Below, one piece after another: positions 2,388 through 9,706 of a stretch of DNA of 32,000 nt. The first letter of the stretch is position 1. Each line of letters starts with the position of its first letter. The notes beneath the pieces are model-generated. The model had not been told where the DNA came from, did no database searches, and worked only from the letters and a program-made list of their open reading frames with translations. Position numbers and translations under genes: made by a program. The DNA is from Candidatus Electrothrix sp. GW3-4 (GTDB lineage: Bacteria > Desulfobacterota > Desulfobulbia > Desulfobulbales > Desulfobulbaceae), in the NCBI RefSeq assembly GCF_037902255.1, contig NZ_CP147990.1, positions 3,090,001 to 3,122,000 on the forward strand. The letters run 5' to 3'.

Positions 2388-2415
2388 TTGACAGTCAAGA
2401 GGGAACTTGTAAGAT
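2388..2415 (+). promoter_or_regulatory. Candidate sigma70-type promoter for the six-gene cluster
   Basis: TTGACA (2388-2393), a 16-nt spacer, then TAAGAT (2410-2415). It sits about 75 nt upstream of the first ORF at 2490, in the divergent intergenic region shared with yqgE. Confidence 0.35.
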
Positions 2416-2489
2416 AGAAAGAACAAAAAAGAATGCGGAAGCAAAAGAATGGATGTTGAACAATATACGATAAAAAGCAGAGAAGACCT

Positions 2490-5734: not shown

Positions 5735-8700
5735 CTACGAAAAACCAATGCGTTCAGAGAAAATATGATAAACACCGACAACCCCTATATCGGCCCCCGC
5801 TCCTTTACCCGGCAAGAGGCTGACCGTTTTTTCGGGCGCGAGGCAGAGGCTGCCGACCTGCTTTCCCTGGTCATTGCCGAGCGGCTGGTGCTTTTTTATG
5901 CCCAGTCCGGGGCTGGCAAGACCTCGCTCATTAACACCTCCCTGATTCCCGGTTTGGAAGAAAACGGACGGGCGGTGCTGCCGGTGGGTCGGGTGGGCGG
6001 CGAGCTGCCTGTCGATATCGCGGAGGCGGACAATATCTTTGCCTTCAGCCTGATGTCCCAACTTGATCAGGGCGGGACTGACCCGGCTCTGCTTGCCCGG
6101 CTGGAGCTGAGCGCCTTTCTCCGGGATCTGGTCAGCTCGGACGGGCAAACCTATAGGTATGAGCTGCCGGATAAAAACGAGCCGATCCCTGACAACCCCG
6201 AAGACGGACCGATCTGTGTGCTGATCATTGATCAGTTTGAAGAGATTCTGACCGCCCACCCGGATCGTTGGCAGGACAGGGCTGGATTTTTCCGCCAGCT
6301 CAACCGAGCCATGCAGGATGATCCCAGGCTGTCCGTGGTCCTGTCCCTGCGTGAGGATTATGTGGCCGCTTTGGAACCCTATGCGCCACTGCTGACTGAC
6401 CGGATGCGGGCCCGCTTCTACATGGAACGCATGGGACGCGGGGCAGCCCTAGCTGCGGTGAAGAGACCTGCTGAAAAGGCAAGCAGGCCCTTTGCGCCCG
6501 GAGCTGCCGAGACCTTGGTGGATAACCTGAGCCTGATTCGTTCCGCCCGCAGCTCGGAACCACGCCCCGGTCAGTACATCGAGCCGGTCCAGTTGCAGGT
6601 GGTCTGCTTTCAGCTCTGGCGCAATCTACCGTCGGGAGAGGAGATCACCACGGAGCAGGTCAGTAGGATCGGCAATATTGATCATGCCTTGGCGGACTTT
6701 TATGAGCAGGCGATGGCTGAAACCTTGCTGACAAGTGGGGGTTCTGAACTGGAGCTGCGGCAGTGGTTTGAGCGCAGGCTGATCACCGAGGCAGGCACGC
6801 GAGGCACGGTTTTTCAAGGGGAAACTCATTCCGGGGGCATGGAGAATCAGGTAGTGCGCTTGCTGGAAGATCGCTTTCTGGTTCGAGCTGAGAGCCGCTC
6901 CGGCGCGGTTTGGTATGAGCTGGTCCATGACCGTTTTGTGGAGCCGATTCTTCAGGCCAATCAGAAATGGATGGAGACCCAAGGGCCGCTGTTGCGGGAT
7001 GCCTTGGCTTGGCTGGATACCAACAAGACAAACCGGAGTCTGCTCTATACCGGGGAAAAGCTGGCAAAGACCTTGGCGGAGGTGGACGGACAAACAGTGC
7101 CGGACCCAGTGGTTGCTGATTTCCTGCAAGACTGCAAAGGAAGACAGGCTTGGTTGGATGAGAAGGCGGCGGCGAACAGGAGGTTCCGCAGGTGGTTCAA
7201 GGTAGCGGTGGTGGTTGCTGTTGTGGCAGTGCTGACGAGTTTGTGGGCGTGGCAAGCTACAAACAAGGCCAAAATTGCCGAACAGCAGGCATTAACTTCT
7301 CAGGAGAAAACAGAAAAAACATTGAGTCGTCTTCAACAAACCGAGGCACTGAATACAGGCATGGCCCTCAATGCCAAGGCTGAGGCGGCGGAGAACAAGG
7401 GCAGCAGGCTGTATGCGCATCTTTATTCCCTTCATGCCTTGACAAAGTTGTTGCCGAAAAATGAGCCATATTACCAGGAGGCCCTTGTTCGGGCACAGGC
7501 TAATCCAGTGCCGTTGCCTGCGTTTATTGGTCATCATGATGACCGGGTAAACAGCGTTGCCTTTTCCCCGGACGGGCGTTTCTTCGCTGACAGTTATGAC
7601 AAAAATATAGTCATATGGGACACAATAACTGGTGAACGTTTGCATACCTTAGCGGGGCATGCGGATGAAGTGAACAGCGTTGCATTCTCGCCTGATGGTT
7701 TATTGCTTGCGTCCGGTTCAAATGACAAAAGCATTGGCATCTGGGACATACATACCGGTAACCGTCTAAAAGTATTAGAAGGACATACCGACTCGATTGG
7801 TAGTATTTCCTTTTCTCCAGACGGTCGTTTACTTGCTTCATGTTCAAAAGACAAGACGATAGGCATCTGGGATGTGCAAACCGGGAAACGTCTACATACC
7901 TTGGCAGGACAAAGCCAAGTGACCAGAGTAGCCTTTTCTCCAGACGGCAGAACAATTGCTTCCACCTTCTATGATGGAACCATCGGCATCCGGGATGTAC
8001 ATACTGGCAAACGCTTGCAGACCTTAGACGGATATACAAGTGTCCTACTCAGTATTGCTTTTTCTCATGATGGCCGAACTCTTGCCGCTGGTTCTTTCGG
8101 AACGATTGACCTCTGGGATATAACAATCGGCAAACGTTTGCGGACGATTAAGCGTGATGGCACTTGGATGATTACCAGCGTTTCTTTCTCGCCAGATGGT
8201 CGAGCAGTTGCATCAGGCAGTTTTGGCAATATCATAACGGTCTGGGATGTTCAAACGGGCCAGAGCCTGCAAACGCTACAAGGAACAGCATCTGGACGCA
8301 GCATTGCTTTTTCGCCGGACGGCCAGACTCTTGTCTCTTCCGGTTCTTGGAACAATACAGCAGGACTCTGGGAAATAAATCCTGGCAGGCTTCGCGACTT
8401 GAAAGGACACGCTGGGCGCGTGACAAACATATGGTTTTCTCCAGACAGTCGTGCCATTGCTTCTGTGGCAAAAGATAAGACCCTCGGTACCTGGGATGTG
8501 GCAACAGGCCGACGCTTACAGAAAATACCTTTACGGGAAATGACAGGAATGGATTATGTGCTCTTTTCTCCAGATGGCCGCATGTTCGCTGCTGGCTCAT
8601 ATGGCAGCAACAGCATTCGTCTTGGGGAAGTGTCCACAGGAAAATGGTTGAGAAACCTTGAAGGGCACACCAAGGAGATAGATAATTTTGCTTTTTCCTC

Positions 8701-9706
8701 GGATAACCGATTTCTTGCCTCCGCAGCTTCAGATAAGACCATAAAAATATGGGACGTGCAGACAGGAGTATGCCTGCGGACTCTGCCTGTAGAAGACGAG
8801 GTTGAAACCAGTATATCTTTTTCGCCAAATGGTCGCCTCTTTGCTGCTGGCTTAAAAAACAAAACCATCAACCTTTGGGATAATACCACAGGAAAGCGTT
8901 TACAAACCTTAAAAGGGGTCAGCGGGGTAAGCACTTTTTCCTCGGATAGTCGCCTGCTCGCTGTCTCTGATTCAACCGATCACACTATCAGCATCTGGGA
9001 TATATCTACTGGTCAACGTGTGCAAACTTTGAAAAGGCATAAGGCTTGGGTTGATCATCTCGTATTCTCATCAGATAATCTTCTCCTTGCCTCCAGCTCT
9101 ATGGACAAGACCATCGCCATCTGGGACGTGAAAACCGGTAAACGTGTGCGCACCCTGAAAGAAAACATTGCTTCAGAGGGCAGCATTGCTTTCTCCCCGG
9201 ACAATCGCTTCCTCGCCTTCACCACCGACGACAACACCGTCGTCCTCTGGGATTTAGAACCCGCAATCAACGAATTCTCCGGCATCTCCCTTGACGAAAA
9301 CGGCGAGTACAAAATTGACCTGGATACCCTACCCTACAAACTGGAAGGCCTCGAACTCAAACCCATCGAGCAGCAACAAAACACCCCGGACAAACCCGCC
9401 CGCTGGAGCCGCTACCACCCCTTCCACTGGCTGCCCGCCGCCGAAAAAGGCGACAGCAACGCCATGCTGCAAATCGGCATCATCTACGACCGCAACAACG
9501 ACATCGCCCGCGCCCTGCCCTGGTACGGAAAGGCCATCAAGGCCGGTAATGAGCAGGCCCAAAAACAACAGGACATCCTCCTCCACTGGCTGGAGGACAA
9601 GGAAAACTGGCAGACCGTGCCCGGCCCGTTTCGTACCACCTTCTGTAAAGCAAAAGTGGCGTTTGAGCTGCCTGAGAAGGTAGCGGATCTGTGCGAAGAG
9701 CAGTGA
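5729..9706 (+). CDS. STAND-type P-loop NTPase / single TM helix / 14 WD40 repeats / Sel1 repeat protein
   Basis: The N-terminus NPYIGPRSFTRQEADRFFGRE..LFYAQSGAGKTS (Walker A, K64 at 5918-5920) and Walker B VLIIDQFEE (6230-6244) are typical of the WD40-linked STAND NTPases of multicellular bacteria. A hydrophobic helix WFKVAVVVAVVAVLTSLWAW lies at 7193-7252. Fourteen FSPDG...WD repeats span 7529-9259. A Sel1-like repeat GDSNAMLQIGIIYDRNNDIARALPWYGKAIKAGNEQAQ lies at 9449-9562. The ORF opens at GTG 5729, but the ATG at 5765 (MINTDNPY...) is an equally likely start. Confidence 0.9.
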   Translation: MPLRKTNAFRENMINTDNPYIGPRSFTRQEADRFFGREAEAADLLSLVIAERLVLFYAQSGAGKTSLINTSLIPGLEENGRAVLPVGRVGGELPVDIAEADNIFAFSLMSQLDQGGTDPALLARLELSAFLRDLVSSDGQTYRYELPDKNEPIPDNPEDGPICVLIIDQFEEILTAHPDRWQDRAGFFRQLNRAMQDDPRLSVVLSLREDYVAALEPYAPLLTDRMRARFYMERMGRGAALAAVKRPAEKASRPFAPGAAETLVDNLSLIRSARSSEPRPGQYIEPVQLQVVCFQLWRNLPSGEEITTEQVSRIGNIDHALADFYEQAMAETLLTSGGSELELRQWFERRLITEAGTRGTVFQGETHSGGMENQVVRLLEDRFLVRAESRSGAVWYELVHDRFVEPILQANQKWMETQGPLLRDALAWLDTNKTNRSLLYTGEKLAKTLAEVDGQTVPDPVVADFLQDCKGRQAWLDEKAAANRRFRRWFKVAVVVAVVAVLTSLWAWQATNKAKIAEQQALTSQEKTEKTLSRLQQTEALNTGMALNAKAEAAENKGSRLYAHLYSLHALTKLLPKNEPYYQEALVRAQANPVPLPAFIGHHDDRVNSVAFSPDGRFFADSYDKNIVIWDTITGERLHTLAGHADEVNSVAFSPDGLLLASGSNDKSIGIWDIHTGNRLKVLEGHTDSIGSISFSPDGRLLASCSKDKTIGIWDVQTGKRLHTLAGQSQVTRVAFSPDGRTIASTFYDGTIGIRDVHTGKRLQTLDGYTSVLLSIAFSHDGRTLAAGSFGTIDLWDITIGKRLRTIKRDGTWMITSVSFSPDGRAVASGSFGNIITVWDVQTGQSLQTLQGTASGRSIAFSPDGQTLVSSGSWNNTAGLWEINPGRLRDLKGHAGRVTNIWFSPDSRAIASVAKDKTLGTWDVATGRRLQKIPLREMTGMDYVLFSPDGRMFAAGSYGSNSIRLGEVSTGKWLRNLEGHTKEIDNFAFSSDNRFLASAASDKTIKIWDVQTGVCLRTLPVEDEVETSISFSPNGRLFAAGLKNKTINLWDNTTGKRLQTLKGVSGVSTFSSDSRLLAVSDSTDHTISIWDISTGQRVQTLKRHKAWVDHLVFSSDNLLLASSSMDKTIAIWDVKTGKRVRTLKENIASEGSIAFSPDNRFLAFTTDDNTVVLWDLEPAINEFSGISLDENGEYKIDLDTLPYKLEGLELKPIEQQQNTPDKPARWSRYHPFHWLPAAEKGDSNAMLQIGIIYDRNNDIARALPWYGKAIKAGNEQAQKQQDILLHWLEDKENWQTVPGPFRTTFCKAKVAFELPEKVADLCEEQ
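7529..9259 (+). repeat. 14 tandem WD40 coding repeats (about 40-44 codons each; two predicted 7-bladed propellers)
   Basis: The protein-level unit GHxxxVxSVAFSPDGRxLASGSxDKTIxIWDVxTGKRLxTL recurs 14 times. Short nucleotide strings such as ttttctccagacgg also recur. Confidence 0.9.

Follow-up and report, generated by a model that had tools for sequence, protein, structure and literature searches.

Do six tightly packed genes of a cable bacterium form a single conflict system and, if not, which of them belong together? This question is raised by a stretch of 32,000 nucleotides from Candidatus Electrothrix sp. GW3-4 (contig NZ_CP147990.1, positions 3,090,001 to 3,122,000; all of it is hereafter called the window), in which six open reading frames (ORFs) on the plus strand, here named g1 to g6, carry the NCBI locus tags WGN25_13750 to 13775. 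The original prediction had treated all six as one candidate defence system. Our analysis shows that the widely conserved core consists of three proteins, an FGE-sulfatase-fold (FGS) protein, a SIR2-like protein and an nSTAND1 NTPase, and points to a four-gene module (g2, g3, g5 and g6) rather than a six-gene one as the functional unit. On balance, we favour the view that this module is an NLR-type (NOD-like receptor) conflict or regulated-cell-death system of filamentous, multicellular bacteria. The six genes are:

2490 to 2699, plus strand: g1 (WGN25_13750), a conserved small ORF of 69 aa with no Pfam, PADLOC or NCBIfam match.
2747 to 3214, plus strand: g2, a HetE-N (PF20701)/Bell-like helical protein of 155 aa, assigned from precomputed Pfam; its beta-prone C-terminal tail in the AlphaFold2 (AF2) model comprises aa 105-155 (nt 3059-3211).
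3286 to 4056, plus strand: g3, a stand-alone FGS (C-type-lectin-like) protein of 256 aa (PF03781, E 4e-46).
4081 to 4695, plus strand: g4, a Uma2 family PD-(D/E)xK protein of 204 aa (PF05685, E 2e-32; PADLOC candidate PDC-S03).
4695 to 5714, plus strand: g5, a SIR2-fold protein of 339 aa (PF13289, SIR2_2, E 3e-18), with S167 at nt 5193-5195, H220 at nt 5352-5354 and H222 at nt 5358-5360.
5765 to 9706 (5729 to 9706 from a GTG), plus strand: g6, an nSTAND1 NTPase (PF20703, E 1.2e-36, aa 19-405, plus WD40), made up of the NTPase module (nt 5783-6943), a single transmembrane (TM) helix (nt 7196-7252), about 14 WD40 repeats (nt 7526-9298) and, beyond the repeats, 135 C-terminal aa with no family assigned.

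ORF calling on the window recovered all six genes at the positions previously given for them, with intergenic gaps of 47, 71, 24, -1 (a TGATG overlap) and 14 nt, the last being 50 nt if counted from ATG 5765. The FGE-sulfatase, Uma2, SIR2-like, STAND and WD40 assignments were confirmed by a Pfam scan, and Walker A K64 of g6 (5918-5920) and H222 of g5 were found where they had been placed. Scans of all six proteins against PADLOC-DB 2.0 and NCBIfam returned no named system, so the idea of a conflict-type module that PADLOC-DB does not assign to a described system holds. The PADLOC-DB matches were Uma2 to PDC-S03, a marginal match of g5 to ThsA (E 7e-4) and a WD40-driven match of g6 to HEAT-ARM_XIII.

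The composition of the module emerges from its gene neighbourhoods. An alignment of 24 g5 homologues was scanned against one genome per GTDB species, which gave 352 relatives; the best 78 loci, holding 83 SIR2-like genes, were kept, and their mechanically called ORFs were searched with the window proteins. An nSTAND1 gene lies directly downstream, on the same strand, of 75 of the 78 testable SIR2-like genes (83 genes in 78 loci). Directly upstream, a stand-alone FGS gene is present for 57 of 75 testable genes, or for 58 if locus L041 is included, where an ORF overlap had hidden it. At least four phyla have the order FGS, SIR2-like, nSTAND1, set between unrelated flanks. Most loci (71 of 78) belong to Chloroflexota, namely filamentous Caldilineaceae, Anaerolineae, Ardenticatenaceae and Promineifilaceae. 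The others come from Electronema, an uncultured proteobacterium, Competibacteraceae, a gammaproteobacterium, Acidobacteriota and one unclassified bacterium. Tandem cassettes occur as well, with three copies in L035 and two each in L046 and L057. Outside the triad, the flanks vary among distant loci and often consist of housekeeping genes (alanyl-tRNA synthetase, an AMP-binding enzyme, PfkB kinase, histidine kinases); across the 78 loci, recurrent flank clusters were confined to close relatives and housekeeping genes, and no further conserved neighbour was found. Since the triad is constant amid changing flanks, it behaves as a self-contained, transferable module. The recurrence of neighbours that the original prediction had proposed as a check is therefore strong for the core genes, across distant phyla and in otherwise unrelated contexts.

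The claim of a single six-gene system does not hold, as hardly any homologous cassette contains g1 or Uma2, and both persist in relatives that have lost the cassette. No homologue of g1 was found in any of the 78 SIR2-anchored loci; elsewhere it occurs only in three cassette-less relatives (L086-L088), directly upstream of Uma2. Uma2 lies inside the cassette only in cable bacteria (the window and the Electronema loci L001 and L002), and Electronema possesses a second, divergent Uma2 between the SIR2 and STAND genes. In L085, HetE-N, FGE, SIR2_2 and nSTAND1 follow each other without Uma2, and L003 begins in the same way with three genes, HetE-N, FGE and SIR2-like, likewise without Uma2, up to the end of its contig.

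The three cassette-less loci, from related Electrothrix, share the flanks of the window (cobU to DUF179/yqgE on the left, RecD2 on the right) and carry between them only g1, Uma2 and a 96-aa ORF, in that order. Here, g1 is kept at ~80% amino acid identity and Uma2 at 95-96% nucleotide identity. The 96-aa ORF is a fusion of the first ~25 nt of g5 with the last ~280 nt of g6, and an 11-nt microhomology, GGCTGC[T/C]CGCC, is found at both window breakpoints (about 4722 and 9431; the scar segments are L086 6743-7966, L087 6743-7969 and L088 2573-3796, against window 2490-9706). This fusion remnant and the shared flanks identify L086-L088 as deletion derivatives of a window-like ancestor, which have lost g2 and g3 as well as g5 and g6 (bar the remnant) and have kept g1 and Uma2. 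Both g1 and Uma2, the latter a lineage-specific gene, are residents of the locus and not part of the core; they are probably co-transcribed with the module and not required by it. The two positions of Uma2 in Electronema are compatible both with co-option by the cable-bacterial cassette and with repeated insertion.

Further traces of turnover are found at the same site. Uma2 and the g6 3' remnant (window 4060-4729 and 9429-9673) are 92-96% identical to L086-L088, while the flanking housekeeping genes (yqgE side, RecD2) reach only 80-86%, which suggests either recent recombination or transfer, or unusually strong constraint. In Candidatus Electrothrix laxa (E. laxa; L082 9001-18396) the RecD2-adjacent site is occupied by a different system, made up of a HetE-N gene (131 aa), a NACHT/AAA_16 gene (592 aa) and a WD40 gene (1665 aa); a ParE-like toxin follows the WD40 gene, and the locus holds a 120-nt remnant of the 3' end of window g6. 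The RecD2-adjacent site is thus a turnover hotspot. An AIM24-family gene to the right of the cluster (PF01987, 10210-11214), which has a ~125-aa N-terminal extension of no assigned family and follows a 500-bp spacer, was considered as a part of the system and rejected: it is missing from every related locus, and gene and spacer together (9674-11265) are missing from the related Electrothrix contigs and the 78 cassette loci. Carriage by a mobile element was also considered and rejected: nothing matched a phage, and the plasmid collection gave just two matches, both partial and distant, to very large replicons listed in it.

Where would such a module sense its trigger? The NTPase g6, named 'nSTAND1 domain-containing NTPase' by NCBI, has intact Walker A (GAGKT, aa 61-65) and Walker B (IIDQFEE, aa 166) motifs. 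Its membrane helix is not N-terminal, as had been thought, and is located at aa 490-508 between the NTPase and the WD40 region; nor did the Sel1 repeat proposed for its C-terminus find a Pfam match at E <= 0.01 in the last 135 aa. The same layout is found throughout the family, with exactly one TM helix just after the NTPase in 65 of the 69 partner STANDs that have enough C-terminal sequence. In the 15 aa before this helix lysine and arginine number 4.98 on average, compared with 1.58 after it, and the excess before the helix is seen in 65 of 65 proteins. From this uniform positive-inside bias, the N-terminus is predicted to be inside and the C-terminal WD40 sensor should therefore be extracytoplasmic, which in a Gram-negative host means the periplasm.

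The putative ectodomains themselves are diverse. WD40 is present in about half of the STANDs and FGE in eight. A Pfam scan of 56 N- and C-terminal STAND pieces was dominated by WD40-type families, and ten non-WD40 ectodomain pieces scanned separately included PD40 (TolB-type), BNR/Sortilin, TPR, Amidase_2, SH3_3 with Peptidase_M23, and Peptidase_M14. Several such ectodomains are typical extracytoplasmic modules that bind or cleave peptidoglycan. Some nSTAND1 members have an N-terminal FHA domain. Among nSTAND1 paralogues we observed combinations of Amidase_2 with PD40 and of SH3_3 with Peptidase_M23, as well as Peptidase_M14 and BNR/Sortilin propellers (L035 5292-8837, L047 12304-14070, L060 4589-5971, L034 12270-14519 and L010 10920-11405). 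A muramidase-SH3 gene is located just upstream of the FGS gene in several loci (e.g. L054 3838-7803). Within g6, the WD40 repeats are 60-77% alike at the DNA level.

The constant partner of the NTPase, g5, adopts a SIR2 fold. Its AF2 model (predicted local distance difference test, pLDDT, 86; predicted template modelling score, pTM, 0.86) superposes over the whole chain on the SIR2 domains of ThsA, KomC, DSR2 and FAM118B, which are the best Foldseek matches (probability 1.00 to ThsA, KomC and DSR2). A profile alignment to SeThsA, with residue counts over 187 distinct family members, reveals an unusual pocket. The position of the catalytic Asn (TTNYD) is taken by S in 129 members, G in 31, C in 10, N in 7 and T in 5, and corresponds to S167 in g5. 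The catalytic His (xHG; H222 in g5) is H in 143 members, F in 18, Y in 16 and L in 8, and the GAGxS NAD loop is replaced by P-(I/V)-(I/L)-(S/G)-(N/D), which reads P-I-I-S-N. Conserved instead, out of 187, are P32 (186), C188 (169), W190 (187), H220 (184), G223 (187), D225 (176), E235 (177) and Q299 (178). H222, which had been proposed as a site for mutation, is thus less well conserved than H220 two residues before it. The description of g5 as an NADase effector probably does not fit either, since it is the constant partner of an nSTAND1 clade and is devoid of the canonical SIR2 catalytic features; judged by its residues, a standard NADase is unlikely. As g5 stays constant while the effector domains vary, we read it as a core subunit with an altered chemistry or a ligand-binding role. 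A pocket of this kind, in which W190, H220 and G223 are invariant and C188 and D225 nearly so, leads us to predict a new ligand or chemistry.

Variation is instead concentrated at the FGS protein. In 39 homologues encoded upstream of a SIR2-like gene, the FGS N-termini carry CHAT (15), effector-associated domain (EAD) 7 (6), EAD1 (3) or TIR (2-3). By comparison, g3 of the window has an N-terminus of only 19 aa with no effector domain, and the corresponding place is filled by g2 as a separate gene; in Chloroflexota, CHAT, TIR, EAD1 or EAD7 fused to FGS take the place of g2. The FGS protein may therefore be read as an adaptor that carries exchangeable death domains. Its best solved relative is ToxD (7spq, E 7e-30). 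The catalytic cysteine pair in the C-terminal loop of human FGE (SUMF1) has the form CxxxxC, which the FGS family consensus RGGSFxDxxxxLRCxAR does not show. A Pfam scan found no EAD on g6, g5 or g3 of the window, and no second EAD copy was detected within the +/-10 kb examined around FGS loci that bear EAD1 or EAD7. Diversification of the FGS gene by a diversity-generating retroelement (DGR) was considered and rejected: there is no template/variable repeat in the 32-kb window or beside 73 FGE 3' ends, and no recurrent neighbour cluster resembling reverse transcriptase was found in the flanks of the examined loci.

For g2, the original prediction of a plain helical adaptor gives way to a Bell/HetE-N type cell-death domain. 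Precomputed Pfam annotation from a newer release places PF20701 on g2 and on 40 of the 42 listed homologues, and the same family is present, unflagged, on four homologues whose contigs were looked up; in a local hmmscan, g2 matched HetE-N below threshold (E 0.005-0.02). All 43 sequences (g2 and its homologues) open with MEP(V/I)xT and then a hydrophobic helix. M1 and P3 never vary, E2 hardly does, and TTIVAAIALGA comes next; in g2 the N-terminal helix is MEPVTTTIVAAIALGA. The AF2 model (pLDDT 77) is a five-helix bundle, with helices at 4-19, 26-42, 47-58, 63-75 and 82-98, followed by a tail of four short predicted strands (pLDDT 58-74). This start is the 'MEPIS' region known from Bab, Bell and Hell domains as well as from certain antiphage NLRs (Ibarlosa et al., bioRxiv 10.1101/2024.11.07.622273), and we infer that HetE-N1 and Babybell represent a single type of domain. 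Among the cassettes, g2 occurs only in proteobacterial versions; its paralogues are found directly upstream of NB-ARC or NACHT genes.

The tails of the g2 homologues are of two types, and one of them links g2 to the FGS protein in Electronema. A hidden Markov model (HMM) of the second type (QxVxGxGNxxSGTGDVxxGNIxI) matches the FGS N-termini of both Electronema loci (E 1e-4 and 4e-4), where the motif peptides are VEQHVVGHGNVVAGTGDVTAGNISI and VRQDISGSGNIVAGSGDIIIRNLTL. In shuffle tests, the Bell tail resembles the FGS N-terminus with z = 14 in L002 and z = 10 in L001, both from Electronema. The Bell tail and the NACHT N-terminus of E. laxa (L082) score z = 6.4 and have NI(F/I)SG(T/S)G(N/D)V in common, and a first-type Bell tail and the NB-ARC-TPR N-terminus of L079 score z = 4.3. 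The pairing is not significant in the orthologue L083 (1.5), in L085 (1.3) or in L003 (-0.1), and the HMM of the first-type (type-A) tail found no partner in any locus. Motif sharing between Bell and FGS sequences is thus shown in Electronema and undetected in the window. The Electronema arrangement, with one copy at the g2 C-terminus and the other at the FGS N-terminus, corresponds to the layout of amyloid-templated activation and may, by analogy, point to such a mechanism. In L001 (Candidatus Electronema sp. KV, 8380-8540), a frameshift interrupts the g2 homologue immediately ahead of its C-terminal motif; the motif then runs on in another frame up to a TGATG, where it overlaps the FGS gene. 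The frameshift is either an assembly error or a real disruption.

In the window, 40 open codons precede the g3 GTG in frame (3166-3285) and encode '...PQSVGQHIGVKIEQSHAP'. The 85% orthologue L083 has kept this stretch as 'PQSVGDNIGVNIGQTHAP', with several synonymous changes. It contains no ATG, GTG or TTG. Its only possible initiator is a near-cognate codon that shares bases with the g2 stop, namely ATA at 3211 in the window (ATAA) and ATC in L083 (TAATC). The stretch may be an N-terminal extension translated from a coupled near-cognate start, or a decaying motif region. Translation from ATA 3211 would add the segment 'VGQHIGVKIEQS' to g3.

Taken together, these features lead us to the following model. 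g6 would be a single-pass membrane protein with its NTPase in the cytoplasm and, as its sequence statistics predict, its WD40 propeller outside. An envelope or periplasmic cue would bind the propeller and, by analogy with STAND proteins, license NTP-dependent oligomerisation of nSTAND1 at the membrane. The oligomer may then engage the constant SIR2-like subunit, which could make or bind an NAD-derived ligand or act as a scaffold. The FGS protein would link this complex to an executioner that can be exchanged: in Chloroflexota a CHAT protease, TIR or EAD fused to it and, in cable bacteria, the separate Bell/HetE-N protein g2, whose hydrophobic N-terminal helix may attack the membrane in a manner analogous to Bab/Agp. 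We rate any particular relay much lower than the general NLR-type reading. This applies to the most explicit version, a bacterial transmembrane NLR whose external sensor reads envelope or peptidoglycan cues, akin to animal PGRP/NOD. Here, the SIR2-fold protein makes or binds an NAD-derived ligand, FGS reads the ligand and activates the executioner, and in cable bacteria amyloid-type templating of a Bell pore-former kills one cell and protects the filament that shares its periplasm. As a whole this scenario is decidedly improbable, and a ligand made by the SIR2-like protein and read by a lectin-fold FGS protein is speculation.

Several observations weigh against the NLR-type reading. All loci were collected via the SIR2-like gene, so that the synteny is conditional on it, and many are contigs of metagenome-assembled genomes with mechanical ORF calls and some frameshifts (e.g. 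g2 in L001). No defence island is obvious around the window or many of the homologous loci, whose neighbours are housekeeping genes, and the PADLOC models match no core gene convincingly (ThsA at E 7e-4 is the only case). A Foldseek search of the g2 model against the PDB gave a best E of 0.5 and no significant match, and the Bell-like assignment therefore comes from Pfam HetE-N, the N-terminal motif and gene context rather than from the fold. In the window, the g2 tail and the N-terminal region of g3 have no motif in common at a significant level (z = 0.4, p = 0.32), and their sole resemblance, 'GVKI', lies in frame upstream of the annotated g3 GTG start. Finally, the topology of g6 is derived from just hydropathy and charge bias, and every functional step of the model from domain identity and gene context.

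What else could the module be? In the original prediction, a cytoplasmic STAND recognises a phage protein and activates a canonical SIR2 NADase that depletes NAD+, with Uma2 as a second effector in a six-gene abortive-infection operon. This is in line with the SIR2 fold, whose best structural matches are the defence NADases ThsA, KomC and DSR2, with the tight same-strand packing and the TGATG overlap of Uma2 and SIR2, with the PDC-S03 match of Uma2, and with the presence of Uma2 inside the cassette in two cable-bacterial genera, twice in Electronema. However, 170 of 187 members have Ser, Gly or Cys in place of the ThsA catalytic Asn and 7 have Asn, GAGxS is replaced and the canonical His is kept in only 143. 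In addition, the other effector domains vary and the SIR2-like gene does not, the predicted place of the sensor is outside the cytoplasm, and Uma2 and g1 are missing from at least 75 homologous cassettes and persist in relatives that have lost the cassette. We consider this model unlikely. Fortuitous adjacency of unrelated same-strand genes would account for g1, Uma2 and the downstream AIM24-family gene, none of which travels with the rest; for the core it is refuted by the synteny of FGS, SIR2-like and nSTAND1 genes in at least four phyla with unrelated flanks, and as an explanation of the locus it is barely credible.

Two further explanations keep the external sensor and change its purpose. 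The module may be a non-immune device for envelope signalling or development, which senses the status of the wall or of neighbours and controls cell death, filament breakage or wall remodelling. The predicted external sensors, which include peptidoglycan amidase, M23, M14 and SH3 domains, the muramidase-SH3 gene upstream in several loci, a distribution almost restricted to filamentous lineages, housekeeping flanks in place of defence islands and the FHA domain of some members, typical of Ser/Thr-phosphorylation signalling, all speak for it. Yet CHAT, TIR, EADs, HetE-N, the SIR2 fold and STAND are the repertoire of conflict systems (PMC8195603), and tandem paralogous cassettes, patchy presence and quick loss or replacement resemble the turnover of immune genes; a non-immune role of this kind is therefore as unlikely in our estimate as the NADase operon. 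Alternatively, a variable external propeller might read molecules on the surface or in the periplasm of adjacent non-kin filaments and trigger death, in the manner of incompatibility by HET-E or NWD2/HET-S in fungi. HetE-N/Bell domains and paired short motifs are found here as in the fungal NLR/HET-S pairs (bioRxiv 10.1101/2020.01.06.895854), the sensor is external, the hosts are multicellular and the WD40 repeats are internally similar. With 60-77% identity at the DNA level, however, the g6 repeats are far less uniform than the 80-90% reported for hypervariable repeats of fungal and bacterial NLRs. Moreover, we know of no evidence for cell fusion or cytoplasmic mixing in these bacteria, and such kin recognition or allorecognition appears highly unlikely.

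The NLR-type reading, if correct, gives the cassette a wider meaning. To our knowledge, all characterised bacterial STAND/NLR immune receptors sense their triggers in the cytoplasm; a conserved clade whose ectodomains, of periplasmic or peptidoglycan kinds, are predicted to lie beyond a single membrane helix with its uniform charge bias would carry NLR-like sensing to the cell envelope. With the SIR2-like protein and nSTAND1 constant, FGS as an adaptor and the death domains swappable, it would constitute a natural experiment in modularity. In Electronema, a short-motif pairing known from fungal HET-S and E. coli Bab/Agp is now found on an FGS-fold protein. As the hosts are cable bacteria and filamentous Chloroflexota, the module has a bearing on the sacrifice of single cells in multicellular prokaryotes.

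Expression signals around the cluster are sparse. Two elements concern the starts of g1 and g6:

2388 to 2415, plus strand: candidate sigma-70-like promoter, TTGACA-16-TAAGAT, 10/12 matches, upstream of g1.
5715 to 5734, no strand: perfect 20-nt GC palindrome GGGCACGGCGCGCCGTGCCC, between g5 and g6, covering GTG 5729.

The promoter that had been proposed for the whole cluster exists at its site, but such sites occur at shuffle frequency (7 against 5.8 expected), and it falls in a stretch (729-2666) that can be aligned with the cassette-less relatives. Promoter-like and terminator-like counts in the region both equal the shuffle expectation, and transcript structure can therefore not be judged from the sequence. 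The palindrome GGGCACGGCGCGCCGTGCCC is probably a dispersed element resembling repetitive extragenic palindromic (REP) sequences, because an identical copy lies downstream of cobU in L086 (1642-1665); no T-run follows the window copy. Its position over GTG 5729 favours ATG 5765, the NCBI start, for g6, which is 1313 aa long from this ATG and 1325 aa from the GTG. The 3' end of Uma2 contains, at 4653-4672, a terminator-like hairpin with an 8-bp stem, GGACGGTTCGCGAACCGTTC, which lies 23 nt ahead of the g5 start and whose palindrome L086 has retained. This hairpin may terminate Uma2 itself or act as an attenuator inside the cluster; its T-run is weak, and the region has no more such sites than expected by chance. 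On the left, the divergent neighbour called yqgE exists as an ORF at its position, and Pfam DUF179 is annotated on its counterpart in related contigs. A 262-aa ORF on the minus strand (879-1667) with no Pfam match adjoins it inside the relative-aligned stretch 729-2666 (~81% nucleotide identity). On the right, the gene-less gap of about 500 bp that had been noted is real, with no convincing gene and no Rfam match in 9707-10209. The rest of the window is housekeeping (Clp-type AAA ATPase, DNA polymerase III delta, RNase G, M23 peptidase, LptF/G, a RecD2-like helicase) and contains one tRNA gene at 27679-27752.

How does the module relate to known systems? The composition had been thought to be unprecedented, but nSTAND1, FGS, effector-associated domains, HetE-N and even 'nSTAND1+TM+BetaPropeller' have already been catalogued computationally by Kaur, Iyer, Burroughs and Aravind (eLife 2020, PMC7159879; eLife 2021, PMC8195603), whose work on predicted nSTAND1/STAND-NTPase-FGS conflict systems is also the basis of the Pfam nSTAND1 family. 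'nSTAND1+TM+BetaPropeller' is listed ~400 times in the PMC8195603 supplement. nSTAND1/FGS/EAD systems have been predicted to be conflict systems enriched in multicellular bacteria (PMC8195603, PMC7159879, PMC10907252), and STAND-linked C-type-lectin domains are described as lacking experimental characterisation (Doré et al., PMC10907252). The accessible part of a 2026 survey of defence STANDs (PMC12803255) notes FGE-like and WD40 sensors and does not mention the cassette. Our literature search found no experimental paper on an nSTAND1 system.

Three other groups of systems bear a partial resemblance. Bab/Agp and Bell-NLR pairs (Dyrka et al., bioRxiv 10.1101/2020.01.06.895854; Ibarlosa et al., bioRxiv 10.1101/2024.11.07.622273) resemble the module in that, in filamentous hosts, the gene just upstream of the activator encodes a small helical protein whose first helix is of the MEP-plus-hydrophobic kind and whose C-terminal tail is beta-prone. 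The motif shared by tail and partner is significant in L001, L002, L082 and L079 and not in the window. The module differs from these pairs by two further constant genes, the SIR2-like and the membrane nSTAND1 gene, and is known from sequence alone. Avs/AVAST and bNACHT systems also combine a STAND NTPase with a repeat sensor and death effectors, and some have SIR2 or Bell-like N-termini. They are, however, single cytosolic polypeptides that sense phage proteins in the cytoplasm, whereas here the effectors are separate genes, the NTPase is one of the nSTAND1 clade and is separated from the sensor by a membrane helix; PADLOC models for Avs or bNACHT do not match the cluster proteins. With ThsA, DSR2 and KomC, g5 shares the SIR2 fold over all 339 aa (Foldseek E 5e-11 to 1e-6, TM-score about 0.55-0.62). 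In contrast to them, it has only 13-16% identity, a replaced catalytic Asn, a lost glycine-rich loop and other invariant residues, and its system has no SLOG domain, tail-tube sensor, ThsB or KomB partner.

The closest description of the module is that of the computationally predicted nSTAND1/FGS conflict systems of Kaur et al. Both have the same NTPase family, a TM helix with a repeat sensor, an upstream nucleotide- or NAD-processing gene, exchangeable FGS, EAD and HetE-N1 components and multicellular hosts. In the window, this likeness consists of an nSTAND1 with intact Walker motifs, a C-terminal sensor after the TM helix and neighbouring genes of the effector repertoire, the SIR2-fold gene directly upstream of g6 and HetE-N further up; paired EAD copies on NTPase and effector are absent. 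In the neighbourhoods of Kaur et al., the upstream position is often taken by TIR+DrHyd genes, so that the placement of the SIR2-like gene has a precedent. Here, however, a SIR2-fold protein whose pocket is non-canonical holds that position; in the Kaur supplement file 'SIR2' occurs only 7 times, and neither of the two occurrences examined is directly upstream of nSTAND1. Likewise, FGS is a separate, effector-carrying protein and not a C-terminal sensor fused to the NTPase, and there is no DGR. In the accessible part of their main text, nSTAND1 is named a single time and the sensor is not discussed as lying outside the cytoplasm. What the module adds to this class is therefore a constant, non-canonical SIR2-like partner, a stand-alone FGS protein that carries effectors, a predicted external sensor and, in cable bacteria, a motif-paired Bell protein.

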